From Candidatus Uhrbacteria bacterium (lineage in GTDB: Bacteria; Patescibacteriota; Patescibacteriia; UBA9934), in contig CALRCK010000002.1 of the NCBI GenBank assembly GCA_943354605.1, forward strand, positions 71,186 to 135,185: a stretch of 64,000 bases of DNA, written 5' to 3'. How positions within the stretch are numbered: the first letter of the stretch is position 1; each line of letters begins with the position of its first letter. Below the pieces are notes generated by a model. It searched no databases, was not told where the DNA came from, and saw only the letters and a list, made by a program, of their open reading frames with translations. Shown here piece after piece: positions 5,395 to 62,698 of the stretch. A program made the translations under genes and the position numbers.

Positions 5395-5475
5395 AACCTG
5401 TAGAGACGGCCCGCTGAGCCGTCTCGGATCACGTCCGACGACATCGGAGACGACCCAGCGGGCCGTCTCTACAAT
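5395..5475. repeat. Nested palindromic element (R4): TGTAGAGACGGCCCGCTG...CCAGCGGGCCGTCTCTACA with inner hairpin GAGACGGCC-GCCGTCTC. A related hairpin lies at 12100-12135.
   Basis: Terminal inverted repeats of ~19 bp read directly in the sequence. Copy 2 is GAGACGGCTCGCCGGGCCGTCTCGG. Confidence 0.5.
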
Positions 5476-7784: not shown

Positions 7785-7900
7785 AGTTTCACATTTGTGG
7801 CGAGTTTGGGTGCGCGACGAGGAAAGCTCGCGAGACGTACTTCATGTGTACGTTGAGCGAGTTTCCGATGGCGCAAGCCAAAAATCGGCCAAATAAGGAA
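7785..7900 (+). repeat. R1 palindromic dispersed element, copy a (~110 bp; core ...GCAAAGTTCGCGAGACGTACTTC..GTACGTTGAGCGAATTTGC...AAAATCGGCCAAA)
   Basis: Aligned by eye to at least 10 other copies in the window. Internal dyad symmetry around ACGTAC. Confidence 0.7.
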
Positions 7901-7909
7901 GTCCTGCCG

Positions 7910-10429: not shown

Positions 10430-10462
10430 AAAATTATTCTTCACGAAGACCTCGTCCGTCAT

Positions 10463-10546
10463 TCTGAGCGAAGCGAAGAATCTCCGTCGGGATCAGATCC
10501 TGATAACCTGCGAGAGATTCTTCGCTTCGCTCAGAATGACTGATGC
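10463..10546. repeat. R2 perfect palindromic element GTCATTCTGAGCGAAGCGAAGAATCTC ... GAGAGATTCTTCGCTTCGCTCAGAATGAC
   Basis: 27-bp perfect inverted arms around a 30-bp spacer. Related copies at 22748-22835 and (degenerate) 32165-32270. Confidence 0.7.
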
Positions 10547-12088: not shown

Positions 12089-12241
12089 GAGATGATTATA
12101 ACAAACGTGGAGACGGCTCGCCGGGCCGTCTCGGGCCATAAACGCGAAGAGTCCCCCGATCCAGCCTTGCGGCCGAGTCGAGGGACTCCGTGTGGTCGGC
12201 GTTGCGTACGCCTACCCGTGCGAACGAACCCTCAGATCACG

Positions 12242-14275
12242 CTAGCAGCCGTGCCCCGGGTACACCGTGGCATCGCTGTCGTTGCAGTCGGCGCTGTCTT
12301 CCATGTACCCGTAGGACGTGTAAGTGGCCTTCTGCGTGCACGACAGAGGGTCGGTGCAGGCGTCGGGGTTGCCGTACCCATCGCCGTCGCCATCGGCGCA
12401 GAACAGGACGAGATCCTCGTCCACACTGCCGTCGCAGTCGTTGTCCACGCTGTCGCAGACTTCGGAGGCTCCGGGGTACACCCCATCGTCCCCGTCGTCG
12501 CAGTCGGTGGAGTCAGACACGTACCCGGCCGGAGCCGAGCACGCCGCGTCGGTCGTGGAGGAGTCGCCGTAGCTATCCCCGTCGCTGTCCGCGTAGAAGA
12601 CGCTGGTGACGCCTTCGTCCGTGCTGCCATCGCAGTCGTCGTCCGCACCGTTGCACACTTCGGGTTCGCCAGGGTTCAGGCTGGCGTCGCCGTCGTCGCA
12701 GTCGGCACACACGTCGTAGCCGTCTCCGTCGTAGTCGCCGTCGTCCGCGCTCCCCGAACAGTCGTTGTCCACCCCGTCGCACCATTCGATGTCGCCGGGG
12801 TAGGAATCGTTGTTCGTGTCGTCGCAGTCGGTGTTGTCGGCGGTGTAGCCGGAGGGCTCACTGCAGGACGTGGTGCTGATGGCCACGTTGCCGTAGCCAT
12901 CGTTATCCGCGTCCACGTACCACGTGAGGGCGTCCACAGCGCCGTCGTCCACCACGCCATCGCAGTCGTCGTCCACGCTGTTGCACGTCTCGAGTTCCCC
13001 GGGGTTGATTCCGGAGTCGGCGTCGTTGCAGTCGGTGAGGTCGAAGACGTAGCCGGAGGGCGCGGTGCCGTCGCACGTAGCGGTGGAGATGGAGGGATCG
13101 CCGAAGCTGTCGCCGTCGGCATCGGCGTAGGAACTGGTCCACGAGAGACCGTCGTCCGCGCTGCCGCTGCAGTCGTTGTCCACCCCGTCGCACGCCTCCA
13201 CTTCCGCGGGGTTGATTCCCGCATCGGTGTCGTCGCAGTCTGAGACGTTCGTGCTGTAGCCGGCGCCCGGATCCGCGCACTCGGAGGTTCCTACACCCGC
13301 ACCGTACCCGTCGCCATCGGCATCGGGGTAGTAGATGATGGTGGCGAAATCCTCGTCCGTGGAGCCGTCACAGTCGTCGTCCGCACCGTTGCAGACTTCG
13401 GCCGCACCCGGGTTGATGCCCAAGTCGCCGTCGTCGCAGTCGGTGGAGTCGGCGACGTAGTCCGAAGGCTCGTCGCACGCGGAGGTGGAGATGGAGGGAT
13501 CGCCGTACCCGTCGCCGTCGCTGTCCGCGTACCAGGTGAGGGCGTCGGTCGCGCCTTCATCGACGGTGCCTTCGCAATCGTTGTCCACCCCGTCGCACAC
13601 TTCCGTGTTGCCGGGGTAGGCGGTCGCGTCGGTGTCGTCGCAGTCCTCGCACGCGATGGTTCCGTCGCCGTCCAGGTCGGACGTACCGGCGGATCCGTCG
13701 CAGTTGAGGTCGATGGTGTCCGTGCAGCTCTCCACGGCGTACGGGTGAACGGTGGCGTCGGTGTCGTCGCAGTCGGTGTCGTTCTCGACGTACCCGACCG
13801 GAGCCGAGCAGCCGTCGATCGTCGCCGAGGCGTCGCCGTACCCGTCGCCGTCCGCGTCCGCGTAGAACGTCTTCTGGTCGGCGGCATCGCTGTCGATGTT
13901 GCCGTCGCAGTCGTCGTCTACGCCGTTGCAGACCTCCACCGAACCCGGGTTGATCGCCGGGTCGGCGTCGTCGCAGTCGTCGTCGGCCGTGAAGCCGTCG
14001 CCGTCCGCGTCGATGGGCTTGGCGGTGTCGCCGGTCTCACCGGTCTCGACCGAGTCCGAATCGCCGGTTTCCGAGTTGGTGTCCGGGACGGAGTCGGAAT
14101 CGGTCACGGTGCTGTCGCCGGTGCCGGTGTCGGAATCGCCGCAGTTGAGGTCAATGGTGACGGTGCCACCAAAGAGACCACCGGACGACTTCGTGCAATC
14201 GCCGGACGGCACCGCACAGGCATTGAGGACGAGGGTGACGAGAAAGGAGGGAACGAGAACGAGGGAACGGGTCAT
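12242..14275 (-). CDS. High-GC secreted/lipoprotein with ~11 tandem cysteine-rich repeats (DCDDxDxxxxPGAxExCNGxDDDCDGxxDE; MXAN 'putative metal-binding motif'-like)
   Basis: ATG at 14275 preceded by GGAGATTATC. N-term MTRSLVLVPSFLVTLVLNAC. GC ~68% with G/C-rich third codon positions; the repeats are visible directly in the translation. Confidence 0.75.
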   Translation of the reverse strand: MTRSLVLVPSFLVTLVLNACAVPSGDCTKSSGGLFGGTVTIDLNCGDSDTGTGDSTVTDSDSVPDTNSETGDSDSVETGETGDTAKPIDADGDGFTADDDCDDADPAINPGSVEVCNGVDDDCDGNIDSDAADQKTFYADADGDGYGDASATIDGCSAPVGYVENDTDCDDTDATVHPYAVESCTDTIDLNCDGSAGTSDLDGDGTIACEDCDDTDATAYPGNTEVCDGVDNDCEGTVDEGATDALTWYADSDGDGYGDPSISTSACDEPSDYVADSTDCDDGDLGINPGAAEVCNGADDDCDGSTDEDFATIIYYPDADGDGYGAGVGTSECADPGAGYSTNVSDCDDTDAGINPAEVEACDGVDNDCSGSADDGLSWTSSYADADGDSFGDPSISTATCDGTAPSGYVFDLTDCNDADSGINPGELETCNSVDDDCDGVVDDGAVDALTWYVDADNDGYGNVAISTTSCSEPSGYTADNTDCDDTNNDSYPGDIEWCDGVDNDCSGSADDGDYDGDGYDVCADCDDGDASLNPGEPEVCNGADDDCDGSTDEGVTSVFYADSDGDSYGDSSTTDAACSAPAGYVSDSTDCDDGDDGVYPGASEVCDSVDNDCDGSVDEDLVLFCADGDGDGYGNPDACTDPLSCTQKATYTSYGYMEDSADCNDSDATVYPGHGC

Positions 14276-14554
14276 GATAATCTCCAGGATCAGTGAGGGA
14301 AAGTGTCGTATCTGAGGGTTCTGTTTTGAAAGATTCGTGCCCGAATGAGGGCGTCGTGACATCGTGTCACTCCCCCATGCGAGGGACAAGGAAGAATAGT
14401 CTAAAAGTGTCGAAAAGTAAAGCAAAAAAGTGGAGAAAATTCAAACGACCTCGGACACTCGACCAACCCGCGTGGGGAAGGAAGAGGCCGAGGCCGTTCG
14501 TTGCGTGAGTCACCGAACCGTCACGCGGCGGGGTTGCTGCCGACTTCCGCACGC

Positions 14555-15301
14555 CTAGGGCGTGTACAGGTACTCGTAGCTGCCGTACGTGGCGTACGCC
14601 GTGGCGCTGAGGTCGTACCCGTTGACCGAGTACTGGACCACCGCGCAGGTGACGTTGCCGTCGTAGAACACCGCGTTGCCGGTGAGGCCGCCGCAGGCGT
14701 ACACGGAGAAGTCGCCGTAGCCGTCGGTCGTGGTGCTGAGGCCCGAGAGCTTCAGCACGTGACCGGTGGAGCCGGGGTACTCCGCGCACTCGCCCACGAG
14801 GTCGCTGGTGTAGAGCGGGGTCGGGACGGTGCCGTCGGACGCGAACCAGTAGGTGCTGTCCCCGCTGGTCATGTCGAGCACGGCCACGGAGTAGGCGGCG
14901 GCGGAGGTGACCGTACAGATCCGGGTGACGTCGTGGACGTCGTTGTCCGAGTCGTTGAGGTCGCCGCCGATCGCCACGTAGCCGGAGGGCTGGGTGCAGG
15001 ACCACGTCGAGCTGGCGGTGAGGCCGAACCCGTCGTTGTCCGCGTCCAGGTACCACACGATCTCCGTGCACGCGCTGGTGTCCTCCGCCGTGTCGGCGGA
15101 GTCCGCGGTGTCGTCGGCACCCGAATCCGCGGTGTCCGTGGAGTCCGTGTCCGTGTCGGTCGAACCGGTGGAGCCGGAGCTGCCGATGCCGCCGAAGCTG
15201 TAGCCGCCGGAGGCGGGGGCCTCGGAGCCGGTGTCGGGCGCCGGGCTGGACACGCCGCAGGCGGCGAGGGTGAAGAGGAACGGAACGAGGGTGGAACGCA
15301 T
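14555..15301 (-). CDS. High-GC lipoprotein, hypothetical (one WYxDADxDGFG...C..PSGYV repeat related to the 12242-14275 gene)
   Basis: ATG 15301 preceded by GGAGAGACTCTC. Lipobox FTLAAC. GC ~68%. Confidence 0.7.
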   Translation of the reverse strand: MRSTLVPFLFTLAACGVSSPAPDTGSEAPASGGYSFGGIGSSGSTGSTDTDTDSTDTADSGADDTADSADTAEDTSACTEIVWYLDADNDGFGLTASSTWSCTQPSGYVAIGGDLNDSDNDVHDVTRICTVTSAAAYSVAVLDMTSGDSTYWFASDGTVPTPLYTSDLVGECAEYPGSTGHVLKLSGLSTTTDGYGDFSVYACGGLTGNAVFYDGNVTCAVVQYSVNGYDLSATAYATYGSYEYLYTP

Positions 15302-15482
15302 GAGAGTCTCTCCGAGGGTGACACGGCCCGTGCTTTTGCTAAGCGCGGGTTGTGGCAGAAGTGAAACTTTCGCTTCACTGCTCGCACAATTCTGTGTCCA
15401 TTCCTATAAAATCTTGACCGAGTATTGTAGCAAAAATTTGGAACTTTGTCAATGATCAAAGCTCGGTTCGAGCCGACGAGAA

Positions 15483-15598
15483 CGGTTTTATTTGCGACGA
15501 GTTTGGACGCGCTTCGAGCAAAGTTCGCGAGGCGTACTTCTCGGTACGTTGAGCGAATTTGCGAAGAAGCAAGTTCAAAATCGGCCAAATAAAACTGT
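15483..15598 (+). repeat. R1 palindromic element, copy b
   Basis: ...GAGTTTGGACGCGCTTCGAGCAAAGTTCGCGAGGCGTACTTCTCGGTACGTTGAGCGAATTTGCGAAGAAGCAAGTTCAAAATCGGCCAAAT... Confidence 0.7.
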
Positions 15599-15719
15599 TC
15601 TCAAAAGCGAACACCCCGGGCGACCGCTTCACTCCCCCGTAGTTGGGAAGGAAGGGTCGCACCGGGGTGCGCGTGGTTGCCGCGTTCACCCACACGGCAG
15701 GTCGGGCTGGGGAGCCCTA

Positions 15720-16352
15720 CTAGTACGTGTGGCAAGCCGTGTCGGGCGGGGCGAAGCTTCCGCCGAGCGGGCTCACCACACCGTTCTCGACCATGAACGA
15801 CCAGTTGACGTCCGTGCGGTAGCCGCTCGAGTCGTAGCCGGTCATGCCCGCGCAATCGGGGCTGCCGTTCACGATCGTGGCGAGGTAGCGCGAGTCGTCG
15901 TTGGTCGTGAGGCCCTCGAGCGCCTGGCAGAAGCCGTTCTGCGTGTACGGAGTCGCGGACGTGAGCCCGCAGGTGATCTCGTACATGCCGTCGCGGATGC
16001 CGGTGGCGCCGTAGCCGACGACCTCGCCCGTCGAGTTGGTCAGCTCGGGGAGCGGGAGGAAGGCGGTCTCCCAGCCGAACTCCGCGTCGTTGTACTCCTC
16101 CGAGCCGAAGCCGAAGGTGGAGTAGCTCTGGCCCGAGGCGTTCACCGGCATGGTGGCGCTGAAGAACCAGGCGACGCTGGCGCCCACGTCCGTCTGCCCG
16201 AAGGCGTAGGACTGGTTGCCGTAGTCCGAGATGCCGTTGCCGTCGAGGTCGTCGATGGCCACGATCTCCTGGACTTCGCCGCCCGAGACGTCGGGGCCGG
16301 AGGAGTAGGTGGAGCAGGCGGGGAGGATGGTGAAGAGCGCGATGAGGATCAT
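15720..16352 (-). CDS. High-GC lipoprotein, hypothetical
   Basis: ORF runs to 16466. Probable start is ATG 16352 (MILIALFTILPACSTYSSG), preceded by GGAGACACAGTC. Lipobox LPAC. Confidence 0.65.
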   Translation of the reverse strand: MILIALFTILPACSTYSSGPDVSGGEVQEIVAIDDLDGNGISDYGNQSYAFGQTDVGASVAWFFSATMPVNASGQSYSTFGFGSEEYNDAEFGWETAFLPLPELTNSTGEVVGYGATGIRDGMYEITCGLTSATPYTQNGFCQALEGLTTNDDSRYLATIVNGSPDCAGMTGYDSSGYRTDVNWSFMVENGVVSPLGGSFAPPDTACHTY

Positions 16353-16502
16353 GACTGTGTCTCCGAACGGGTGGAAGAAGGCCGGGGGTTCCCGGCGACT
16401 CGGGTTGCGAGCCACCTGGATGTCCAGGCCTTGGCAGAAGTGAAGGATTTCCTTCACTGCTTGCAAGGACTGGCTTACAGGACTTCCTCATTTTGACTAT
16501 TT

Positions 16503-16612
16503 TCGGCTTGCTCGTCGCACATTCGCTCAACGTACCGAGAAGTACGCCTCGCGAACTGTGATCCTCGCGCACCGAAACTAGCCTAAAATGAGAAAGTTCT
16601 GTGTAAAACTCA
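16503..16612 (-). repeat. R1 palindromic element, copy c (inverse orientation)
   Basis: TATTTTCGGCTTGCTCGTCGCACATTCGCTCAACGTACCGAGAAGTACGCCTCGCGAACTGTG...CGAAACTAGCC. Confidence 0.7.
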
Positions 16613-16837
16613 TGTTCAATTGTGAACCAAGTACTATAGCAAGAATTTGAAGTTTTGTCAATGATTGAGGTTCATCAATCATTCATTTTGCTGCAAATGC
16701 TCTTGTATTGAGAAGCGTCGCGAACGGCCGGGGGAATCGAGGCTTGTGGCCCCTATCCCCCAGCCGAACCGTTGCGTGGTCACCGTGTCCTTGCCCGTCA
16801 GCCCCACTTCGACATGGGGCCTACTAGGGCGAAGGAA

Positions 16838-17818
16838 TCAGCGCACCGTCACCGAGCTGCCGCTGCCGACCGGACCGGCGAAGAAGCGGATGCCGCCGTG
16901 GCCGTAGCCCACCCCGCCGATGCCGGCGGTCGAGCTGTCGACCATGTCGTACCCGCCGCCCACGAAGAGCTCGATGTTCACCGGCCCGAAGGCCTGGAAA
17001 TCGATCCCCACCTGCGCCTGCCCGCCCGTACGGGTGGCGGAGCACAGGGGGTCGCCCGTAAAGGCGCCCTCGCAAACGAACGACGGACCGATGCCGACGA
17101 CGAGGTCCGCCCCCTCACCGAGGTTCTGCACCAGCTCCGGGAGGGCCCGGATCGAGGTGGCATCGGCGCTGAAGCCGTACCCACCGTCGATCTCGAGGGC
17201 CACCCACGTGTTCGCGTGGACGTCCCAGGAGAAGCGGCCGAAGAGCTCGGTGCGGTCCGACACCCAGGCATCGCTGCCCGGGAGCGGCGGGGCCACCGTC
17301 CCCATCTCGGACAAGCCGATCTGGAAGCGGGTGCCCGACACGCGGACCGTCTCGGTGTGCTCGGTGTGCTCGACGACCGTCGGGTTGACCGTCACGTCCG
17401 ACGCCGCCACGTTCACGACCGGGGCCGGGACGTTGACGACGATCGGCCGGGTCTGCTCCGCACGCAGCGCCTCGGTCAGCTCCGTGATCTCCGCCTTGAG
17501 CGACTCGATCTCCGCGGTGTGCGGGTCGGGCTGCGGGGCGGAGGCGGCGGGGGCCGGGGCGGCGGGCGGGGCGGCGGGGGCCTTGGGCGCGGCGGGCTTC
17601 GGGGTGCTGGGCTTCGCGGTCGCCTTCGGCTTGGCCGGGGCCGCGGGCTTGCACGACGACTTCGCGGCGCACTTGGCGCGCAGCTCGGCGAGCTGGGCCT
17701 CGAGGGCCTGGCGCTCGATGGCGTCGCGCACGACCTCGGTCTCGAGAAGCGAGGGGTCGAGGGTGGCGCCGTCGTCGGCGTAGGCGGAGAGGGTGAAGGA
17801 CAGGAGCAGGGTGAGCAT
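16838..17818 (-). CDS. High-GC secreted protein, hypothetical (signal peptide, coiled-coil, Pro/Ala/Lys-rich linker, Gly-rich C-terminal domain)
   Basis: 326 aa. N-term MLTLLLSFTLSAYA. GC ~70%. Confidence 0.65.
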   Translation of the reverse strand: MLTLLLSFTLSAYADDGATLDPSLLETEVVRDAIERQALEAQLAELRAKCAAKSSCKPAAPAKPKATAKPSTPKPAAPKAPAAPPAAPAPAASAPQPDPHTAEIESLKAEITELTEALRAEQTRPIVVNVPAPVVNVAASDVTVNPTVVEHTEHTETVRVSGTRFQIGLSEMGTVAPPLPGSDAWVSDRTELFGRFSWDVHANTWVALEIDGGYGFSADATSIRALPELVQNLGEGADLVVGIGPSFVCEGAFTGDPLCSATRTGGQAQVGIDFQAFGPVNIELFVGGGYDMVDSSTAGIGGVGYGHGGIRFFAGPVGSGSSVTVR

Positions 17819-22747: not shown

Positions 22748-22835
22748 ATCCGTCCAAAAATCATATTCAGTCATTCTGAGCGAAGCGAAGAATCTCGTGT
22801 AGGTTATCCGGATCACCTGCGAGAGATCCTTCACT
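22748..22835. repeat. R2 palindromic element, copy 2
   Basis: GTCATTCTGAGCGAAGCGAAGAATCTC...GAGAGATCCTTCACTTCGTTCAGGATGAC. Confidence 0.65.
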
Positions 22836-24776: not shown

Positions 24777-24782
24777 AAAACT

Positions 24783-24892
24783 TCGCTCTTTGGCCGATTT
24801 TCGACTCAGATCATCGGAAACTTCCTCAACGTACATATGAGGTACGCCTCGGAAGCTTTCCTCGATCTTCGTCGAAACTCGTCTCAAATATC
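24783..24892 (-). repeat. R1 palindromic element, copy e, in the rpmI-rplT spacer
   Basis: TTTGGCCGATTTTCGACTCAGATCATCGGAAACTTCCTCAACGTACATATGAGGTACGCCTCGGAAGC... Confidence 0.6.
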
Positions 24893-24915
24893 AAAGTTTT
24901 TATCAATTCTCTCCT

Positions 24916-25474: not shown

Positions 25475-25993
25475 ATGAAGCGCCTCGTTCTGTCCCTCGC
25501 CCTCATCGCCGCCGGCTGCGCCAACACGCAGTCCGGCTCCACCTCCACCACCAGCCCCCTCGCCGCGACCTGCGACGTGCCGGCGGACACCACGCTCAGC
25601 ACGTTCAACGCGGACGGCACCTTCCCGGTGACCGGTCGCGGCGTCTCGGCCGACGGCTCCATGGCGGTCAACCTGTGCGACGGCCCCGTGTTCCGGGTGC
25701 TGTTCGTGGAGGGCATGATCGCGGGCGACGCCGCCCAGCACCAGGGCGGCCTCTTCACCGACGGCCAGAACCACCTGGTGCACCACGACGACCTGATCAC
25801 CACCTCCACGACCCCGGTCGCGGCGGACGGTGGTCTCGACGGCGTGAAGGTGACCTGCTTCAAGGGGGTCAACTGCAAGGACGCCCCCGACGAGCCGGCC
25901 CCGGCCGCCGAGGACGCCGTCAGCAACACGCCCGCCGCCCAGGCCGCCGAGCCGCAGGCCGCCACCACGGTCGCGCCCCCGCCGCACCCGTAG
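25475..25993 (+). CDS. High-GC lipoprotein, hypothetical
   Basis: ATG preceded by CTGGAGACTCGC. Lipobox LIAAGC. GC ~70%, unlike its flanks. Confidence 0.65.
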   Translation: MKRLVLSLALIAAGCANTQSGSTSTTSPLAATCDVPADTTLSTFNADGTFPVTGRGVSADGSMAVNLCDGPVFRVLFVEGMIAGDAAQHQGGLFTDGQNHLVHHDDLITTSTTPVAADGGLDGVKVTCFKGVNCKDAPDEPAPAAEDAVSNTPAAQAAEPQAATTVAPPPHP

Positions 25994-26134
25994 CAGGGAC
26001 ACGACGCCACCGGTAGTTTTCCAACGCGGCAGCTACCACGCGATGCCCGACTCCCCCACCATAGGGAGCCGGGCATCTGCAATTTTAGAAATACTTTTCA
26101 AAAGAAAAAGTCCTCACCGAAGTGAGAACCTTTT

Positions 26135-26398: not shown

Positions 26399-26412
26399 AG
26401 GGTGAACGTCCC

Positions 26413-26512
26413 TATTTGGGGTATTTTCGGCTTGCTGCGTCAAAAATTTGCTCACCGTACCAAGAAAGTACGCCTCGCAAATTTTCTCCTAGCGCACCGA
26501 AACTACCCGCAA
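26413..26512 (-). repeat. R1 palindromic element, copy f, adjacent to the tRNA-Asp 5' side
   Basis: TATTTTCGGCTTGCTGCGTCAAAAATTTGCTCACCGTACCAAGAAAGTACGCCTCGCAAATTTTCTCCTAGCGCACCGAAACTACC. Confidence 0.6.
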
Positions 26513-26601
26513 ATATGAACGTTCACAGAAATTCCTGAGCGCGAGTATAGTACCACGCAGAATTTTTTTGACAAGGACGGGGACTGTGCGAAAATGCAGA
26601 T

Positions 26602-33640: not shown

Positions 33641-33924
33641 AGTGAACAACCAAATGGTTCAAGGATAGGGAGCCCTGAACACTGAATGTGATCACCGTAT
33701 AGTATAGCGTGTTCAAGGGTCAACGAATACTGGGGATGAAATGGGGACAGGATAGGGCTAAACTAAGTTTGAGACTAACTAAGTTAGTAGCAAACTTAGT
33801 TAGTGGCAGACTTTCAAAAGCATCCGCCCCGCAAACTCTTTCGAGCCGCGGGGCGGGCGTTGGCCGGTCGCTGCGTACGACCGGCCTGGCGTGGGTTGTG
33901 GAACCTACCGAACGGAGACCGAGA

Positions 33925-34686
33925 TCAGGCGGTGGTAGCGAGCCAGATGGCGAAGTCCAGGAACGCCTGGTTGTCGCCGCACTGCGAGCGGTAGATCGCA
34001 GCCTGCCCCGCGAAGACCGGGGCGACGACCTGACGGGCGCCCTGGACGTCCATAATGCGGCGCCAGCCGCCCTGTTCGCCAGCGATGCGAAATGCCTCCT
34101 CCACGAAGCGGTGAATCTTCACGGCCGCGACGTCGTCCACGCTGCCGGCGGCGAAGACCACCGCCTTCTCCACGAGCCATATCATGATCTCCGTTGCGTG
34201 GCGACGCTCGGCGATGGACTGAGCCTCGCCGTCCTTGCGCTCGGCGAACATCGCCTCGATTTCGGGGATGAGGCTATCCTCCCCCACGATTCGGAGGTAG
34301 ACACGCCAGGGCCGGATCTGCTGCTCGGCCCAGGCGCGGTAGTCCGCCTCCTCCTTGCGCTTCGTGCCGGCAGCGATCTGGTCCGCGAGCTCGGCGGCGG
34401 CACGCTCACGGGCAGCGCTGCGATCGGCACGGTTCGGAGCACCCTTACGCCACCAGCCGAAGACGGAGAAGGCGAGGGAGCCGCCGCCGATGAACGCGAC
34501 AGCAGCGATGAGGAGGCTCACGATGCGCGGGCCCGCCTCGGGCGTCCACAGCTTGAGCACGTGGGTGTCCACGAGACGCGCGTAGTCCGGGTCGGACACG
34601 GCCGCGAGGCTGCCGATGAGCACGAGGCTCGGGATGAAGAACGCGGGGTGGATGACGATGCGGTAGAGAAACCGGAGCAGGAACAT
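33925..34686 (-). CDS. High-GC membrane protein, hypothetical (two N-terminal TM helices)
   Basis: 253 aa, GC ~66%, inserted between ftsA and ftsZ. ATG 34686. Confidence 0.6.
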   Translation of the reverse strand: MFLLRFLYRIVIHPAFFIPSLVLIGSLAAVSDPDYARLVDTHVLKLWTPEAGPRIVSLLIAAVAFIGGGSLAFSVFGWWRKGAPNRADRSAARERAAAELADQIAAGTKRKEEADYRAWAEQQIRPWRVYLRIVGEDSLIPEIEAMFAERKDGEAQSIAERRHATEIMIWLVEKAVVFAAGSVDDVAAVKIHRFVEEAFRIAGEQGGWRRIMDVQGARQVVAPVFAGQAAIYRSQCGDNQAFLDFAIWLATTA

Positions 34687-39717: not shown

Positions 39718-39838
39718 CGGGTTTCTCATTTGCGCCGAGTTTGGGTGCGTGACGAGCAAATCTCTTGAGACGTACTTCTCGGTACGTTGAACGAGTTTGC
39801 GATGACACAAGCCCAAAATCGGCCAAATGAGGAAGCCG
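39718..39838 (+). repeat. R1 palindromic element, copy h, ending at the stop codon of the giant gene
   Basis: CATTTGCGCCGAGTTTGGGTGCGTGACGAGCAAATCTCTTGAGACGTACTTCTCGGTACGTTGAACGAGTTTGCGATGACACAAGCCCAAAATCGGCCAAAT. Confidence 0.7.
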
Positions 39839-53466: not shown

Positions 53467-53530
53467 AGTTTTTCACTCCTCTCAGAGATGCGGAGGATGA
53501 TAGCAGATGGAACAGAAATGGGCAAATGTA

Positions 53531-53785
53531 TTAATAGACGTCGTCATGATTCCCCGCTTGTCGGATAACAACGCACTGGTCTTCGAGAGTAAAGATTATG
53601 CGATAGCTCTGTGTTACCGAACAAGAGAAAAACGCCGACAATGAACCGCGAAGTCGATGCGTTCGCAAGGCAGGCTGGAAAGGATCCTGCTCCAGCATAA
53701 AAAGACAATCTGCAATGCGGCCCTGAAGATCTGAAGAGCACCGTTTTACTGATCGTAAAAACCCGGGCATCAAAACGACCTTCAT
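53531..53785 (-). CDS. Type II toxin, RelE/ParE superfamily
   Basis: 84 aa. The C-terminal SYRIIFTLEDQCVVIRQAGNHDDVY matches the ParE/RelE signature (YRxIYxxxDxxxxIxRIGHRxDxY). Confidence 0.6.
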   Translation of the reverse strand: MKVVLMPGFLRSVKRCSSDLQGRIADCLFMLEQDPFQPALRTHRLRGSLSAFFSCSVTQSYRIIFTLEDQCVVIRQAGNHDDVY

Positions 53786-53788
53786 ACA

Positions 53789-54004
53789 TTATCGGACTGT
53801 CTTCAAAAAATCCTCTTTAGAAGTAAACAGAATTGTATGCTCTTTCCCCAAAAGCATGCGCTTTTCATCTCGCGCAATACTCCGAGCAAGCATCCAATCC
53901 CGTATGGTTTGCAACAAAACTCTGAGTAAAACCAAAAATCCTGGCTTGCGAGCAAACCCTGGAGCGTCGGGAGAAGACTCCAAAGAAAATATTTTTGTAT
54001 TCAT
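53789..54004 (-). CDS. Putative cognate antitoxin (family not recognised)
   Basis: 72-aa ORF whose stop lies 3 nt upstream of the toxin ATG. No recognisable RHH/Phd motif. Confidence 0.3.
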   Translation of the reverse strand: MNTKIFSLESSPDAPGFARKPGFLVLLRVLLQTIRDWMLARSIARDEKRMLLGKEHTILFTSKEDFLKTVR

Positions 54005-54158
54005 ACACAAAAAGTATAGCAAGCTCGTAATAAAACGCGAAGAGACCCTCGACCGGCATGCCGATCGAGGGTCTCCGTTGGCCGGCGCTGCGTACGCCTG
54101 CCCGTGCTGTCTACCGACCGAACACCGAACCTTGACTCGAACCGCTGACCGATCCCCG

Positions 54159-55607
54159 CTACGGGATCGTGACGACGCCGTCGCCGCCGTTCATGACGCC
54201 GTCGCCGTCGGTGTCGTACTCGGAGTCGGTGGTCGAGCTGAGCACGGACACGCCGCCGATCGTGAAGACCGACGTGTGCACCGTACCGCCCGACATCCAA
54301 CCCCAGTACTCGACGCCCGTCGTGCTGTCGATGCAGTCCAGGTTGGCCTTGAGGCTGTGCCCCGAGACCGCCCCGAACGCCGACGTGCAGACCTCGCCGG
54401 TCCCGGTGGCGTACACGTACGGCCACCAGGTCGGGTCGTCGGGCGTGTACGGGTACACCGTCATGTCCGAGAGGAACAGGCTGCAGGTGTCGGTGCTCTG
54501 CACACCTTCCGCGCAGATCTCGCTGCTCGAGCTCGGCGTCATGTCCGCCGTGCCGTCGCAGTCCTCGTCCACCGCGTTGTCGAGGATCTCGGCCGCCCCG
54601 GGGTTGATGCCGGAGTTGCCGTCGTCGCAGTCGGTGTCGTCGGCCACGAATCCCGAGGGCGCACCGTCGCACGTGGTCTCCCACGTGGCCGGATCGCCGT
54701 AGGTGTCGCTGTCCGCGTCCGCGTACCACGCGTCGAACGTGAGCCCGTCGTCGATGCCACCCGCGCAGTCGTTGTCCGCGCCGTCGCACACCTCGGGGTT
54801 GCCCGGGAAGGCGGCGGCGTTGCCGTCGTCGCAATCCGTGCTGTCGCCGACGTAGCCGAGGGGCTGGTCGCACGCGATGTCGCTGGTGGCGGCGGACCCG
54901 TAGGTGTCGCCGTCGCCGTCGAGGTACCACGTGCTCTGGCCGCTCACGCTGCTGTCGGCGTCGTCCGCGCTGCCGTCGCAGTCCTCGTCCACGTCTGCCG
55001 CGTCGCACACCTCGGTCGCGCCGGGGTTGACCGCGACGTTGGTATCGTCGCAATCGGTGCTGTCGGTGACGTAGCCGCTGGGCTGGCTGCACGCCGTGGA
55101 GGTCGCCGAGGCGTCCCCGTAGGTGTCGCCGTCGGCGTCCGCGAAGTAGGTGGTGCTGCCGCCGGACTCGTCCACGGAGCCGTCGCAGTTGTTGTCCACC
55201 GTGTCGCACACCTCGGCTGCGTCCGGGTTGATGCTCGCGCCGGTCGTCGCGTCGTCGTTGCAGTCCATCCCGATCTCGCTGTCCGCGCTGATCTGGATGT
55301 AGTGCTTCGGGCCGCCGCTGAGGGTGAGGTTCACGCAGATGTAGTCCGCGTACCCCGACGAGTTGTCCGCGTAGATGTCGGTCCAGTCCGACGGCTCGAT
55401 AGCGAAGCCGTCCTGGTCGTCGTCGAGCGCGAACACGGCGCTGACACCGTCGGAGGTGCAGACCGAGAGGTCGCTGCCGCTGACGCGCTTCGTCGAAGCG
55501 GTGGCCATGATGCCGTACTTCGAGTTGATGGCGGAACCGGACTGCGTGGAGCAGCCGGTGGTGAGGATGATGCCGAGGCCGGTGAGGGCGATGAGGGAGG
55601 TGCGCAT
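54159..55607 (-). CDS. High-GC lipoprotein with ~7 cysteine-rich DCDDxNxxxNPGAxExCDxxDxDCDGxxDE repeats (same family as 12242-14275)
   Basis: ATG 55607 preceded by GGAACGGAG. Lipobox LTTGC. GC ~68%. Confidence 0.75.
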   Translation of the reverse strand: MRTSLIALTGLGIILTTGCSTQSGSAINSKYGIMATASTKRVSGSDLSVCTSDGVSAVFALDDDQDGFAIEPSDWTDIYADNSSGYADYICVNLTLSGGPKHYIQISADSEIGMDCNDDATTGASINPDAAEVCDTVDNNCDGSVDESGGSTTYFADADGDTYGDASATSTACSQPSGYVTDSTDCDDTNVAVNPGATEVCDAADVDEDCDGSADDADSSVSGQSTWYLDGDGDTYGSAATSDIACDQPLGYVGDSTDCDDGNAAAFPGNPEVCDGADNDCAGGIDDGLTFDAWYADADSDTYGDPATWETTCDGAPSGFVADDTDCDDGNSGINPGAAEILDNAVDEDCDGTADMTPSSSSEICAEGVQSTDTCSLFLSDMTVYPYTPDDPTWWPYVYATGTGEVCTSAFGAVSGHSLKANLDCIDSTTGVEYWGWMSGGTVHTSVFTIGGVSVLSSTTDSEYDTDGDGVMNGGDGVVTIP

Positions 55608-55824
55608 TGTCTGGAACTCCGTTCCTTTTTGAGGTCAACTGGCACGGCGCTCCCAAGGGGCAACACCGTTCGGTTATCCATCGGAAAGAGCGGGGTGCGC
55701 TTCCTCTGGGCCTAATGCTGCAAAAATGGCTAGCATTCGCGCAGGATTCGGGCCAGAGGAAGGAGGGGTGAGATTATCCGATTTTCTGCAAAACGTCAAG
55801 GCTTTTTGCTTGTGGCGAACAAAA

Positions 55825-58653: not shown

Positions 58654-59346
58654 TTAAACAGTATAGGTTGTTGTCTTAAGTGACTCCGGGATTGTGGAGA
58701 GGATTTCAACGGCCTTCGCAACAGAACGGTCGATGACACCGTGTTCTTCTTTCATGAAGCGATTCAGGACGTAGGTTTCCAGGGAAATATTTTCTGGAGG
58801 TGGATTTACACCAACTTTAACGCGCCAGAAGGTTTGGGATCCAATGTGTTGAATAATAGACTTCAATCCGTTGTGGCCGCCGGCGCCGCCTTCAGATCGA
58901 ACGCGAAGGGTTCCCAGCGCAAGCGCAACGTCGTCGGAAACAACGACTGCGGACTTCGCATCGATATGGAATCGATCCATCACCAATCGCACCGCCTCAC
59001 CAGACGCGTTCATGTACGTGGTCGGTTTCATCAAGAGCATTTTTTGTCCATTGACGTTGCCCTCGGCAATCGTGGATCGCAACGTTGGCTCATGTTTCCA
59101 GCTCAACCCCTTCGCTTTTGCAAACGCATCAACAACCATGAATCCCGCATTGTGGCGCGTGCGGTCGTAATCTTTTCCCGGATTCCCGAGACCAACAATG
59201 AGAACCGCCTCATTTCGTCCATTTTCGGCTTGCTTCCTCGGCGTGATCGACGACGTACCGAGAAGTACGTCTTGACGCTCATGCCTTCGTCGCGCACCGA
59301 AACTGGTCTGAAATGAGACGATTCTCAATTTAGGATCAATCGCCAT
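58654..59346 (-). CDS. pth: Peptidyl-tRNA hydrolase. Start uncertain: the 5' end traverses an R1 element in frame.
   Basis: Core AVLIVGLGNPGKDYDRTRHNAGFMVVD...GGHNGLKSI. No canonical start codon lies between the R1 copy and LIVGLGNPG. The nearest in-frame ATG (59346) is upstream of the repeat and overlaps the der 3' end by 11 nt. Confidence 0.75.
   Translation of the reverse strand: MAIDPKLRIVSFQTSFGARRRHERQDVLLGTSSITPRKQAENGRNEAVLIVGLGNPGKDYDRTRHNAGFMVVDAFAKAKGLSWKHEPTLRSTIAEGNVNGQKMLLMKPTTYMNASGEAVRLVMDRFHIDAKSAVVVSDDVALALGTLRVRSEGGAGGHNGLKSIIQHIGSQTFWRVKVGVNPPPENISLETYVLNRFMKEEHGVIDRSVAKAVEILSTIPESLKTTTYTV
59226..59334 (-). repeat. R1 palindromic element, copy i, in-frame within the 5' region of the pth ORF
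   Basis: ...CGACGACGTACCGAGAAGTACGTCTTGACGCTC...GCGCACCGAAACTGGTCTGAAATGAG. Confidence 0.6.
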
Positions 59347-60771: not shown

Positions 60772-60892
60772 GAACGTTCTCATTTGCGGCGAGTTTGGGT
60801 GCACGAGGAGCAAAGTTCGCGAGACGTACTTCATGGCTACGTTGAGCGAATTTACGACGAAGCAAACCCAAAATCGACCAAAGGAGGACGTT
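60772..60892 (+). repeat. R1 palindromic element, copy j
   Basis: CATTTGCGGCGAGTTTGGGTGCACGAGGAGCAAAGTTCGCGAGACGTACTTCATGGCTACGTTGAGCGAATTTACGACGAAGCAAACCCAAAATCGACCAAAG. Confidence 0.7.
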
Positions 60893-62377
60893 CTATCGCA
60901 TTACCAAATTCATCCCGTTCTCCCCAATAATAATCAAAAAGTCGATATCTGAACCGGATCGGTCGGGCACCGATCCCAAAGAATCTGGCACGACGGCATC
61001 GGACGAAAGATACCCTTGCGGCGTCATCACAACATCGGCATCAAGGTACTTTTGCAACGACGCAAGCTCCTCAGCCTTCTTGCCGTTCGTGTAATCGAAA
61101 ATCATGGTCTTTGGATAGTTTCGAACGTCGGCGTTACTCACCACCGCGATTGTAAACCCAGAGCTTTCGAGAAGCTCAGCAGTTCGCGCTGCGAGGCCAG
61201 TGGTACTTGTGCCGTTTTGAATTTCAATCCGAACATCGTCGGTGGACGACGGCTTTTCTGGAAGCGCTGCAGACTGGGATGTCGCGACATTGGTCTTGTC
61301 GAAAATATTCGCCGCGATCAATTTCAAATCGCTCCAGTCTTCGTTCCTCGGCAAAAGCACGTACGCGCCGTTGATCATGGTGGAATACAGCGGACTTCCT
61401 GGAGCAGAATCGAGCACGCGCATCACAATCGCCTGACGGTTGATTTTTGGAATGTACTCCGCCAAACGCATCATCTCCCAAATGCTCATGTCGGTATGCA
61501 CGTTGTCGCGAATGGTGGAAAGAATCTTGTTGAGCTTGGCTGGGTTTAACAACACGTTCAGCGAGAGTGCCTTGTCTTTCAGCGCGAGCAGAATTTTTTG
61601 CTGACGTGCCGCGCGAGCGAAGTCGGAACCCTCCCCATTGTCGCCGTGGCGTGACCGGGCGTATTCCAATGCTGTTTCGCCGTTCATCGTTGCCCAACCC
61701 TCAGTGAAAGAAACCGTCTGAACGCTTCCCAAATCATCGTCGAGTGGATACGTGTTGTCCGTAAACGAATTATCGACATACACATCCACACCGCCAACGT
61801 CGTCGATAATATCCTCGAATCCATGAAAATCGACTTTAATCGTGTAATCGACGGTTTGGCCAAGAATATCGTGAATAGTGTTCGCAGCAGCAGTCATTCC
61901 GGATCCGTCAGCATTCATTTCTGCCAACGCATTCACCGCGTTAATCTTGCGGTATCCGTAATTTGGAATATTCACCGTTAAGTCACGAGGGATAGAAATC
62001 ATTCCCACATCGTTCGTTGAGGGCTTGTAGCTTGCGAAAATCATCGTGTCCGTCAGCTCCGGACCGTCATGGCCAGAGCCACCGATTCCAAGAAGAAGCA
62101 CATTGATACGATCCCCATCTTCCCCGTTCAGGGTCTTGTCTGGCGCAGTGACCAGCCGACGCAACGATGAGAACAATGAAAATCCATTTGACGCCTCGGG
62201 TGCCTCTGCTGTTGTTCGAGCGATCCGAGTGCTCGCAAACGCGCCAGCCGCAACCAAAATTACCGCACCAATGCTCAGCATTTTGGTGACGGATCCAATC
62301 TTCGCCCGAGCCTGACGCTCGGAAAGAATTGGAGACGGTTTTGGAAGAAGATCAATGTGCGGTTCGTCAATCGGCAT
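60893..62377 (-). CDS. LytR-CpsA-Psr (LCP) family cell-envelope phosphotransferase
   Basis: TM anchor, then DTMIFASYKPSTNDVGMISIPRDLTV...YRKINAVNAL (LCP core). ATG at 62377. Confidence 0.75.
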   Translation of the reverse strand: MPIDEPHIDLLPKPSPILSERQARAKIGSVTKMLSIGAVILVAAGAFASTRIARTTAEAPEASNGFSLFSSLRRLVTAPDKTLNGEDGDRINVLLLGIGGSGHDGPELTDTMIFASYKPSTNDVGMISIPRDLTVNIPNYGYRKINAVNALAEMNADGSGMTAAANTIHDILGQTVDYTIKVDFHGFEDIIDDVGGVDVYVDNSFTDNTYPLDDDLGSVQTVSFTEGWATMNGETALEYARSRHGDNGEGSDFARAARQQKILLALKDKALSLNVLLNPAKLNKILSTIRDNVHTDMSIWEMMRLAEYIPKINRQAIVMRVLDSAPGSPLYSTMINGAYVLLPRNEDWSDLKLIAANIFDKTNVATSQSAALPEKPSSTDDVRIEIQNGTSTTGLAARTAELLESSGFTIAVVSNADVRNYPKTMIFDYTNGKKAEELASLQKYLDADVVMTPQGYLSSDAVVPDSLGSVPDRSGSDIDFLIIIGENGMNLVMR

Positions 62378-62571: not shown

Positions 62572-62585
62572 CAAGAACTTCACCA

Positions 62586-62698
62586 ATTTGCCTATTTTCG
62601 GCTTACTGCGTCGCACATTCGCTCAACGTACCGAGAAGTACGCCTCGCGAACTGTGCTCCTGGCGCACCGAAACTAGTCTAAATTGGTGAAGTTCTTC
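62586..62698 (-). repeat. R1 palindromic element, copy k, filling the tRNA-Leu / tRNA-Val spacer
   Basis: TATTTTCGGCTTACTGCGTCGCACATTCGCTCAACGTACCGAGAAGTACGCCTCGCGAACTGTGCTCCTGGCGCACCGAAACTAGTC. Confidence 0.7.

Follow-up and report, generated by a model that had tools for sequence, protein, structure and literature searches.

Lineage-restricted structured 3′ untranslated regions behind GC3-extreme lipoprotein and membrane-protein genes in a Patescibacteria chromosome

Hairpins located immediately behind bacterial genes are known from several systems. The "positive retroregulator" of Bacillus thuringiensis cry is a 3′ stem-loop that stabilises the mRNA and lies upstream of, or at, an intrinsic terminator. 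Repetitive extragenic palindromic (REP) elements occur in hundreds of copies in enterobacteria and pseudomonads, are tied to RAYT transposases, and can stabilise the mRNA upstream of them. The elements compared here with these and other systems are the 3′ untranslated regions (UTRs) of seven genes in a 64-kb stretch of the chromosome of a Candidatus Uhrbacteria bacterium (contig CALRCK010000002.1, positions 71,186 to 135,185; hereafter the window), in particular the 3′ UTR of g54 (54159..55607, minus strand), a MopE-repeat lipoprotein gene in the hisS/rpsU interval. The window belongs to the Patescibacteria (Candidate Phyla Radiation, CPR) and has a GC content of ~52%; the analysis covers this window of one genome together with short related loci.

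Each of the seven elements is placed on the strand of its gene, with the stop codon on one side and a strong hairpin on the other. They are specific to a gene class of one CPR clade that has an extreme GC content at third codon positions (GC3) and encodes hypervariable exported or membrane proteins. With moderate confidence, they are interpreted here as resident, lineage-specific structured 3′ UTRs that act in the RNA, on the formation or stability of the transcript 3′ end, and possibly as a binding site. Their position, their RNA structure on the sense strand and their conservation across species under purifying selection are demonstrated by comparison with related loci. The element is a lineage-restricted variant of the structured 3′ UTR or terminator-associated hairpin and is absent from Rfam: a scan of the whole window at the gathering threshold returned only tmRNA and tRNAs, with no 3′ UTR match, and when the UTR regions were scanned by E-value, the only matches were miRNA-like hairpins below threshold. 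A literature search found nothing on these 3′ elements.

Read in the gene sense, each flank runs from the stop codon through a GC-rich, GUUCG-rich spacer to a small stem-loop or conserved word, then to a long hairpin and a short, U-containing UUCGCGUUU-like tail. The folding z-scores of the seven flanks range from -1.8 to -5.6, with six of the seven at or below -3.6. Behind g54, the stop codon TAG (54159-54161) is followed on the minus strand by a spacer with three GUUCG words (54103..54158), a mini stem-loop with an A·G mismatch (54080..54102; GGCAGGCG-UACGCAG-CGCCGGCC), the linker AACG (54076-54079) and a terminator-type hairpin (54029..54075) that comprises GAGACCCUCGA...UCGAGGGUCUC (54042-54075) and the tail UUCGCGUUUUAUU. 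The second MopE-repeat lipoprotein gene, g12 (12242..14275, minus strand, GC3 0.87), is followed on the same strand by the mini stem-loop GGUAGGCG-UACGCAA-CGCCGACC (12194..12216) and a terminator-type hairpin (12140..12189) formed by GGAGUCCCUCGA...UCGGGGGACUC with the tail UUCGCGUUU; a second, canonical terminator hairpin (12110-12132) lies downstream of the first. The third gene, g33 (33925..34686, minus strand, GC3 0.88), encodes a clade-restricted membrane protein in the ftsA/ftsZ interval. Its module (33856..33899, minus strand) consists of ACAACCCACGCC, the stem-loop GGCCGGUCG-UACGCAG-CGACCGGCC (33862-33886) and AACGCC, and is followed by a terminator hairpin (33811..33856, minus strand; CCGCCCCGCGGCUCGAAAGAGUUUGCGGGGCGG at 33824-33856 with the tail AUGCUUUUGAAAG) whose stem covaries among orthologues. 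The small stems of g54 and g12 differ by one pair changed on both sides, from C-G to U-A, and share the A·G mismatch, at which g33 has a C-G pair. In all three flanks, a hairpin of 12-16 bp begins 3-5 nt ((A)ACG) past the small stem, and the UUCGCGUUU tail is found in g54 and g12.

An earlier note, made from the sequence of the window, had reported related segments behind the high-GC genes and argued that their similarity was no coincidence. All of the strings quoted there are present at, or within ~10 nt of, the positions given for them, each directly 3′ of a high-GC gene, and pairwise Smith-Waterman alignments of the seven 3′ flanks, compared with 300 dinucleotide shuffles, bear the argument out. 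The flanks of g54 and g12 align over ~108 nt, from GCACGGG to TTCGCGTTT, with a score of 84 (z=25, 0/300 shuffles as good), while those of g54 and g33 share the spacer and the small stem-loop with a score of 42 (z=10.7, 0/300). The pair g12-g33 is marginal (z=2.4, 11/300) and has only the small stem-loop in common. The last 240 coding nucleotides of g54 and g12 show no similarity (z=0.8); homology begins past the stop codon, the coding ends that precede the module being non-homologous. Exact copies of the 16-mer GGCGTACGCARCGCCG are confined to 12197-12212 and 54083-54098, and a copy with three mismatches lies at 33866-33881. The pattern of loop and 3′ arm, expected 5e-7 times in 64 kb, was observed three times, in each case between a stop codon and a terminator hairpin.

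The remaining four flanks form two weaker pairs. Those of g14 (14555-15301, minus strand) and g16 (16838-17818, minus strand; a clade-only family) share the 17-nt word CGGTGAC(T)CACGCAACG (z=4.7, 1/300), and those of g15 (15720-16466, minus strand) and g25 (25475-25993, plus strand, after rplT) share the 20-nt word AACGCGGCA(GCT)ACCACGCG (z=4.5, 0/300). The 3′ UTR of g14 (14440..14554, minus strand) carries the word CGGUGACUCACGCAACG (14499-14515) and a long terminator hairpin containing CUUCCUUCCCC. That of g16 (16715..16837, minus strand) consists of a first hairpin, an unpaired conserved linker CACGGUGACCACGCAACGGUUCGG (core 16770-16785) and a terminator hairpin. In g15 (15600..15719, minus strand), a hairpin and the word AACGCGGCAACCACGCG (15670-15686) precede a long terminator hairpin containing CUUCCUUCCCA, and in g25 (25994..26090, plus strand), a hairpin GGUAG...CUACC (26012-26037), including AACGCGGCAGCUACCACGCG (26023-26042), precedes a terminator hairpin (26042-26077).

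Pairs drawn across the three groups score no better than chance (z -0.9 to 2.3). The word GGGAAGGAAGRGG, reported earlier as shared by the g14 and g15 flanks, is present and 12/13 identical, but weak (z=1.8). A single seven-member family was rejected on these grounds and because a MAFFT alignment of all flanks reached a mean column identity of only 42%, with ACGC alone aligning. The proposal of one 3′ element shared by all seven genes is thus partly confirmed, as one clear three-member family (g54, g12 and g33), two weaker pairs and a common architecture, but no alignable element of seven members. The word GTTCG occurs in six of the seven flanks, ten times in 779 nt on the sense strand where 1.27 are expected, and once on the antisense strand (Poisson P about 1e-6). 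An uptake signal GTTCGG was considered and rejected, with 41 copies across the window against about 31 expected.

Syntenic loci of ~6 species-level relatives were collected by exact-protein look-ups and an FtsZ metagenome scan, and each covariation alignment comprises 3-5 species. Positional orthologues of g33 (ftsA/ftsZ), g54 (hisS/rpsU) and g25 (after rplT) are present in ~6 related species, g33 being found at ftsA/ftsZ in all relatives with an FtsZ identity of at least 96% (loci L023-L028). The proteins encoded by ftsZ, ftsA and hisS are 95-100% identical, and the third codon positions of these genes are 57-72% identical, with about 60% in ftsZ and hisS; between the genomes paired for g33, the FtsZ and FtsA proteins are 99-100% identical, with third positions at 57-67%. 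Against this background, the g33 proteins are 35-57% identical and their 3′ UTRs 79-92%. Corresponding values are 38-64% and 79-91% for g25, whose 3′ UTR is kept in three other species, and 49-59% and 82-94% for g16 (two other species). The small stem of g33 (9+9 nt) is identical in four species, with the loop YACGCAG in three and CUACGCG in the fourth, while its terminator stem drifts among orthologues with compensatory and G·U changes. Compensatory changes are found not only in terminator stems but in the small hairpins (C-G to U-A between g54 and g12; one U-A pair replaced by C-G in one species for g25) and in the first hairpin of g16, where several pairs are compensated and the unpaired linker CACGGUGACC.ACGCA.CGGUUCGG is kept. 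G·U wobble pairs appear only in the sense reading of the orthologue stems. On these comparative grounds, the sense-only G·U pairs, the sense-biased GUUCG words, the position between stop codon and terminator and the covarying terminator stems favour an RNA element of the sense strand. The suggestion of a regulatory site, also made earlier, is compatible with this evidence.

The hisS-rpsU position is more fluid among relatives, and its gene content varies. At the g54 position, the small hairpin of locus L109 is re-registered (GGU-A-CGGCGCC-ACAC-GGCGUCG-GCC, two wobble pairs) and is followed by a terminator that is 22/22 identical to the g12 tail of the window. In L108, L110 and L111, a word of the g14/g16 type (CACGGTGACCGCACGAACG) replaces the hairpin at this position, which hints that the flank subtypes may be diverged relatives. 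In the window itself, a low-GC insertion of ~500 nt (53470-54028) separates the g54 terminator from rpsU and is absent from L108, L109 and L110. It contains an ORF for a RelE/YafQ/YoeB-like toxin (53531-53785, minus strand) and a second, small ORF that may encode an antitoxin.

As proposed here, the transcript would end in two parts. The first would be a small GC-rich stem-loop, or a single-stranded conserved word, built from the recurring motifs ACGCA/ACGCG, GGUUCGG and CGGUGAC, and the second, after a gap of 3-10 nt, a long hairpin rich in GC whose U tract is short and interrupted (UUCGCGUUU). By analogy with 3′ stabilisers, REP elements and terminators, the long hairpin would end or pause transcription and, together with the upstream stem-loop, could block 3′-to-5′ exonucleases and so protect the 3′ end. 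The invariant small stem-loop or linker is a putative recognition site for a trans-acting RNA-binding factor that would act on the gene class as a unit and influence transcript stability, processing or read-through into ftsZ, rpsU or wzy. Descent from, or homogenisation to, one module may explain why the g54, g12 and g33 copies are alike.

Several observations weigh against this interpretation. The U tracts are poor, and a simple terminator scan called only the second hairpin behind g12 (12110-12132) and none of the long hairpins. The small stem-loop is dispensable: L028 lacks its 5′ arm, with an alternative stem of seven pairs possible, L108 has a different structure in its place, and L113 and L114 have only a plain terminator. 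The loop also differs in L109 (ACAC). Among the g33 orthologues, the small stem is invariant and therefore provides no covariation; an inverted repeat without variation might just as well be a site in DNA. A covariance model (R1) built from four g33 orthologues reached g54 at 13.4 bits (E=0.5) and missed g12. The transcript 3′ ends, their stability and any binding partner are all matters that we infer. The covariance scan, a check proposed in the earlier note, found only the model's own g33 family in the window and 1.2 Mb of loci; MAFFT mis-registers the stem arms of g54 and g12 against those of g33.

The 3′ modules resemble the cry retroregulator in having GC-rich hairpins between the stop codon and the RNA end, placed in cis on the sense RNA and predicted to block 3′ exonucleases. 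They differ from it in that an additional small stem-loop or linker is kept in sequence and is common to unrelated genes of one compositional class, and in being known from sequence. The modules also resemble Rho-independent terminators in that a stable, GC-rich sense hairpin stands at the gene end, followed by U-containing sequence, and in that the stems covary among orthologues. Unlike in such terminators, the run of U is short and broken up (UUCGCGUUU, AUGCUUUUG); the flank tails read UUCGCGUUUU, AUGCUUUUG, GUUUGAAUUUU and GUUCGCGACGCUUCUC. The hairpins far exceed in length those of the normal-GC genes of the genome, and an extra conserved element precedes them. In the normal-GC genes hisS and rplT, the 3′ UTR is short, and a canonical hairpin is followed by a long T run. 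In the more distant locus L029 (FtsZ 89%), a normal-GC ORF (GC3 0.62) occupies the ftsA/ftsZ position and is followed by a terminator GGGAUUCCCC...GGGGGAAUC-UUCGCGUUU. Because this normal-GC gene has it, the terminator style looks native to the lineage. As a separate observation, the palindrome GAGACGGCCCG..GCCGUCUC, which forms a 37-nt inverted repeat at 5399-5473, is found again as the second terminator behind g12 (12110-12132).

The flanks could be plain compound terminators without any further function, in which the likeness of g54, g12 and g33 is only historical, a product of duplication or gene conversion of the UTRs, and is kept by the need to terminate before ftsZ, rpsU and wzy. A strong hairpin is indeed present at every site, the MopE genes g54 and g12 are paralogues, the terminator is the part shared most widely (g12, L109, L108 and L029), and some orthologues do without the small stem-loop. 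A terminator, however, needs structure rather than sequence, and the small stem-loop and linkers are kept base for base (g33 ACAACCCACGCC and stem; g16 CACGGUGACC.ACGCA.CGGUUCGG) despite ~40% synonymous divergence. The true terminator stems do drift with compensation, and the normal-GC genes of this genome end in short canonical hairpins. For these reasons, plain terminators are considered an unlikely account of the modules.

The geometry of the small stem-loop invites a comparison with DNA sites. At three loci it has the 9-7-9 or 8-7-8 layout of a tyrosine-recombinase core, with the spacer TACGCAG/A, and the inverted repeats of 8-9 bp around an asymmetric 7-bp spacer could in principle represent a recombinase core, an attC-like site or the operator of a dimeric protein. 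This geometry, the spacer identity at the three loci, the invariant arms in the g33 orthologues and the variable gene content between hisS and rpsU among relatives would all suit such a site. Like an integron attC site, the element is an imperfect inverted repeat directly 3′ of an ORF. It is, however, a simple stem of 8-9 bp with a 7-nt loop, without R″/L″-L′/R′ boxes, and the candidate heptamers GTTGGCC and GTTGCGT do not fit GTTRRRY. No intI is found among the ~50 window ORFs scanned, and integron hallmarks are absent, in agreement with the earlier note. Instead of a promoterless array, the genes are dispersed and syntenic across ~6 species and have promoters of their own, which also contradicts the earlier view of them as independently placed cassettes.

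Further evidence against a recombination site, also proposed in the earlier note, comes from the lack of an enzyme. Neither Pfam scans of ~50 window ORFs nor the gene tables of ~100 kb of related loci revealed a domain of an integrase, resolvase, transposase or reverse transcriptase, and the 5′ sides of the genes carry no partner site. The three strong copies flank essential genes in direct orientation, and recombination between them would presumably be lethal. In L109 and L028, the pairing relies on G·U pairs, which are mismatches in DNA, and the spacer identity is lost in L109 and L027. A role as a DNA site is consequently regarded as most improbable. The elements also recall the targets of diversity-generating retroelements (DGRs), in which an initiation of mutagenic homing (IMH) sequence and hairpin are found, since a GC-rich hairpin stands just past the 3′ end of a hypervariable gene. 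Unlike in DGR targets, variability extends over the whole ORF rather than a C-terminal variable region, and the window holds neither an RVT domain nor a template repeat; a repeat search of the window recovered only the MopE repeats and a family resembling miniature inverted-repeat transposable elements (MITEs).

With REP elements, the modules share imperfect GC-rich palindromes in 3′ UTRs, with a GC content above that of the genome. They differ in their number, with three related copies in the 64 kb and no further ones in the other loci and genomes searched, and in their orthologous positions; the window has no RAYT (TnpA_REP) gene. A small mobile or repeat element of the MITE or REP type, carrying a terminator and having landed behind several genes, would explain why the same module follows non-homologous coding ends, and it would find some company in the MITE-like family of this genome (at least nine copies) and in the GTTCG/TTCGC words on both sides of the hairpins. 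The modules have neither terminal inverted repeats nor clear target duplications, and their positions are orthologous across species and not variable. Only three copies exist in the 64 kb. No similar module was found in 1.2-1.35 Mb of ftsZ-linked loci of other CPR lineages, and a search of 185,579 species genomes with the pattern CGTACGCARCGN{0,1}CCGRCCAN{0,1}ACG revealed no multi-copy relative, but 14 single matches in unrelated taxa, which lack both the 5′ arm and the same context and are consistent with chance. A mobile repeat is thus very unlikely.

The MITE-like intergenic repeat is itself ~125 nt long, forms a single long hairpin on folding (-58 kcal/mol, z=-8.7) and has the inverted termini AGAACTTCACCAATTT and AAATTGGTGAAGTTCT. 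Its copies in the window lie at 7788-7905, 15479-15600, 16478-16600, 24778-24895, 26404-26525, 39722-39835, 59202-59325, 60777-60894 and 62574-62696, with a further one in L028 (200-320). They occur in both orientations, and their presence varies between relatives. Another short repeat, TCAGTCATTCTGAGCGAAGCGAAGAATCTC, forms an inverted pair at 10455-10543, and a third copy lies at 22767-22814.

Recent transfer from a high-GC donor, together with a REP element or terminator of that donor, was considered and rejected: the stray matches number only 14, the g33 and g16 families are confined to the clade (4 and 9 homologues, respectively, among 5.8 billion proteins), and the orthologues keep both position and GC3. 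The imported terminator envisaged in the earlier note is unlikely for related reasons, given that the UTRs are 79-94% identical in relatives, that the same style follows the normal-GC gene of L029 and that the 185,579 species genomes contain no multi-copy relative. The homologue search for g54 was swamped by MopE repeats of Myxococcota, Bacteroidota and others, and the loci L002 (Bacteroidota) and L003 (Uhrbacteria) were uninformative on the 3′ element.

The genes that carry these 3′ UTRs are set apart by their composition. All seven have a GC3 of 0.87-0.98 (0.96 in g54), versus 0.48-0.62 in 19 other genes of the window and about 0.55 in the genome outside them. Their fourfold sites comprise 1% A, 5% T, 35% G and 59% C, whereas those of the other genes are nearly even. 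They encode lipoproteins or membrane proteins, with MopE repeats in two of the seven (the paralogous g54 and g12), and each is preceded by its own sigma-70-like promoter (TTGACx-17-TAnnnT). They are embedded among core genes (ftsA, ftsZ, hisS, der, hflX, infC, rplT, smpB, tmRNA, pyk, nrdR, ybeY, rpsU and yqeY) in a window that also encodes giant proteins with an N-terminus of the type IV secretion system (T4SS)-pilin type. A chimeric assembly was rejected, and the mosaic of compositions is no assembly artefact, because an independent Logan contig (ERR5863123) shows 100% identity along 5.9 kb spanning the hisS/g54/rpsU junctions.

This stable split in GC3 within one genome, in hypervariable genes, is the most surprising feature of the locus and more striking than the 3′ element. 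It is kept in the positional orthologues of ~6 species despite protein identities of 35-64%, and the synonymous sites of these species are near saturation. In the g33 orthologues, for instance, GC3 is 0.89-0.90 throughout, against 0.46-0.58 in ftsZ. A split of about 0.95 versus 0.55 goes beyond what ordinary amelioration after horizontal acquisition can account for. Nothing pertinent on CPR genomes with such a GC3 split was found in the literature. Other CPR lineages show the same phenomenon. In one of them (FtsZ 58% identical), a Cys-rich lipoprotein gene has a GC3 of 0.88 in a context of 0.50-0.54 (L061 18680-19629; also L060 and L062), and the MopE genes of another Uhrbacteria locus (L003 1764-8412) have a GC3 of 0.90-0.94. 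In public gene calls of relatives, wrong-strand ORFs run across GC3-rich genes (L112 1546-4019; L115 367-1374 and 8487-9203; L121 and L122); signal peptides and orthology lie on the opposite strand, so that genes of this class are easily mis-annotated or missed.

The contrast between conserved UTRs and divergent ORFs suggests a further explanation, namely that the 5′ and 3′ UTRs serve as homology anchors for frequent allelic replacement of hypervariable ORFs, with GC-biased gene conversion driving GC3 towards 0.95. The 3′ module would then owe part of its conservation to a role as recombination arm or as boundary of the tract. Gene conversion with a GC bias has been proposed to operate in bacteria (PMC4450053). 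The conserved UTRs do flank coding sequences that are only 35-64% identical, and the GC3 of 0.87-0.98 is held despite heavy substitution. The g25 alleles fall into two classes, one of the window and L122 (amino acid identity 0.64) and one of L117 and L115 (0.63), with 0.38 between them, and these classes disagree with the third-position similarity of rplT, although this incongruence rests on one short marker of 115 codons. At the g54 position, the 3′ module of L109 is a mosaic, with its 22-nt tail identical to that of the g12 module of the window. On the other side, homology arms require neither hairpins nor sense-strand G·U pairs nor sense-biased GUUCG words, and the 5′ UTRs of the GC3-high genes are not enriched in GC (0.52-0.63). 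Within one species, assemblies obtained from different samples do not differ. A shift in GC3 from 0.55 to 0.95 also far exceeds the effects usually attributed to GC-biased conversion in bacteria. Homology anchors are accordingly given a low probability, and resident structured 3′ UTRs remain the preferred explanation.

Several observations on neighbouring features may be placed beside these. The two classes of g25 alleles (25475-25993 compared with L115, L117 and L122) suggest allele exchange between lineages. The long 5′ UTR of g54 (55608-55775, minus strand) contains a conserved hairpin (CCUCCUUCCUCUGGCCCGA ... GCGCGAAUGCUAGCCAUUUU ... GGCCCAGAGGAAG) without a match in Rfam, which is also found upstream of the g54 orthologue in L005 and L006, with compensatory changes in L006. 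In the other GC-rich genes, the 5′ UTRs measure 65-275 nt and also contain CUUCCUUCC-like words rich in pyrimidines.

More speculatively, and with somewhat less probability than the anchors, the UTR modules may delimit a locus-specific diversification regime in which the ORFs of exported proteins are continually replaced or converted between a fixed promoter and 5′ UTR on one side and the 3′ hairpin on the other. Recombination with strong GC-biased conversion, or a targeted, transcript-linked process, could be the route. If this were the case, the regime would keep the ORFs hypervariable (35-64% amino acid identity, versus 95-100% in the core) with GC3 pinned at ~0.9-0.98, and the 3′ stem-loop would mark or bound diversification rather than merely ending the mRNA.

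Non-coding regulation is almost unknown in CPR bacteria, and the conserved structured 3′ UTRs described here mark one coherent gene class. Two regimes of codon composition are kept across species within one small genome. The wrong-strand calls of these genes in several public records set a trap for annotation. The GC3-high class of fast-evolving lipoproteins and membrane proteins is probably the cell-surface interface of an episymbiont. Should a single factor recognise the 3′ modules, these would delineate a regulon in Patescibacteria that controls surface variation post-transcriptionally.

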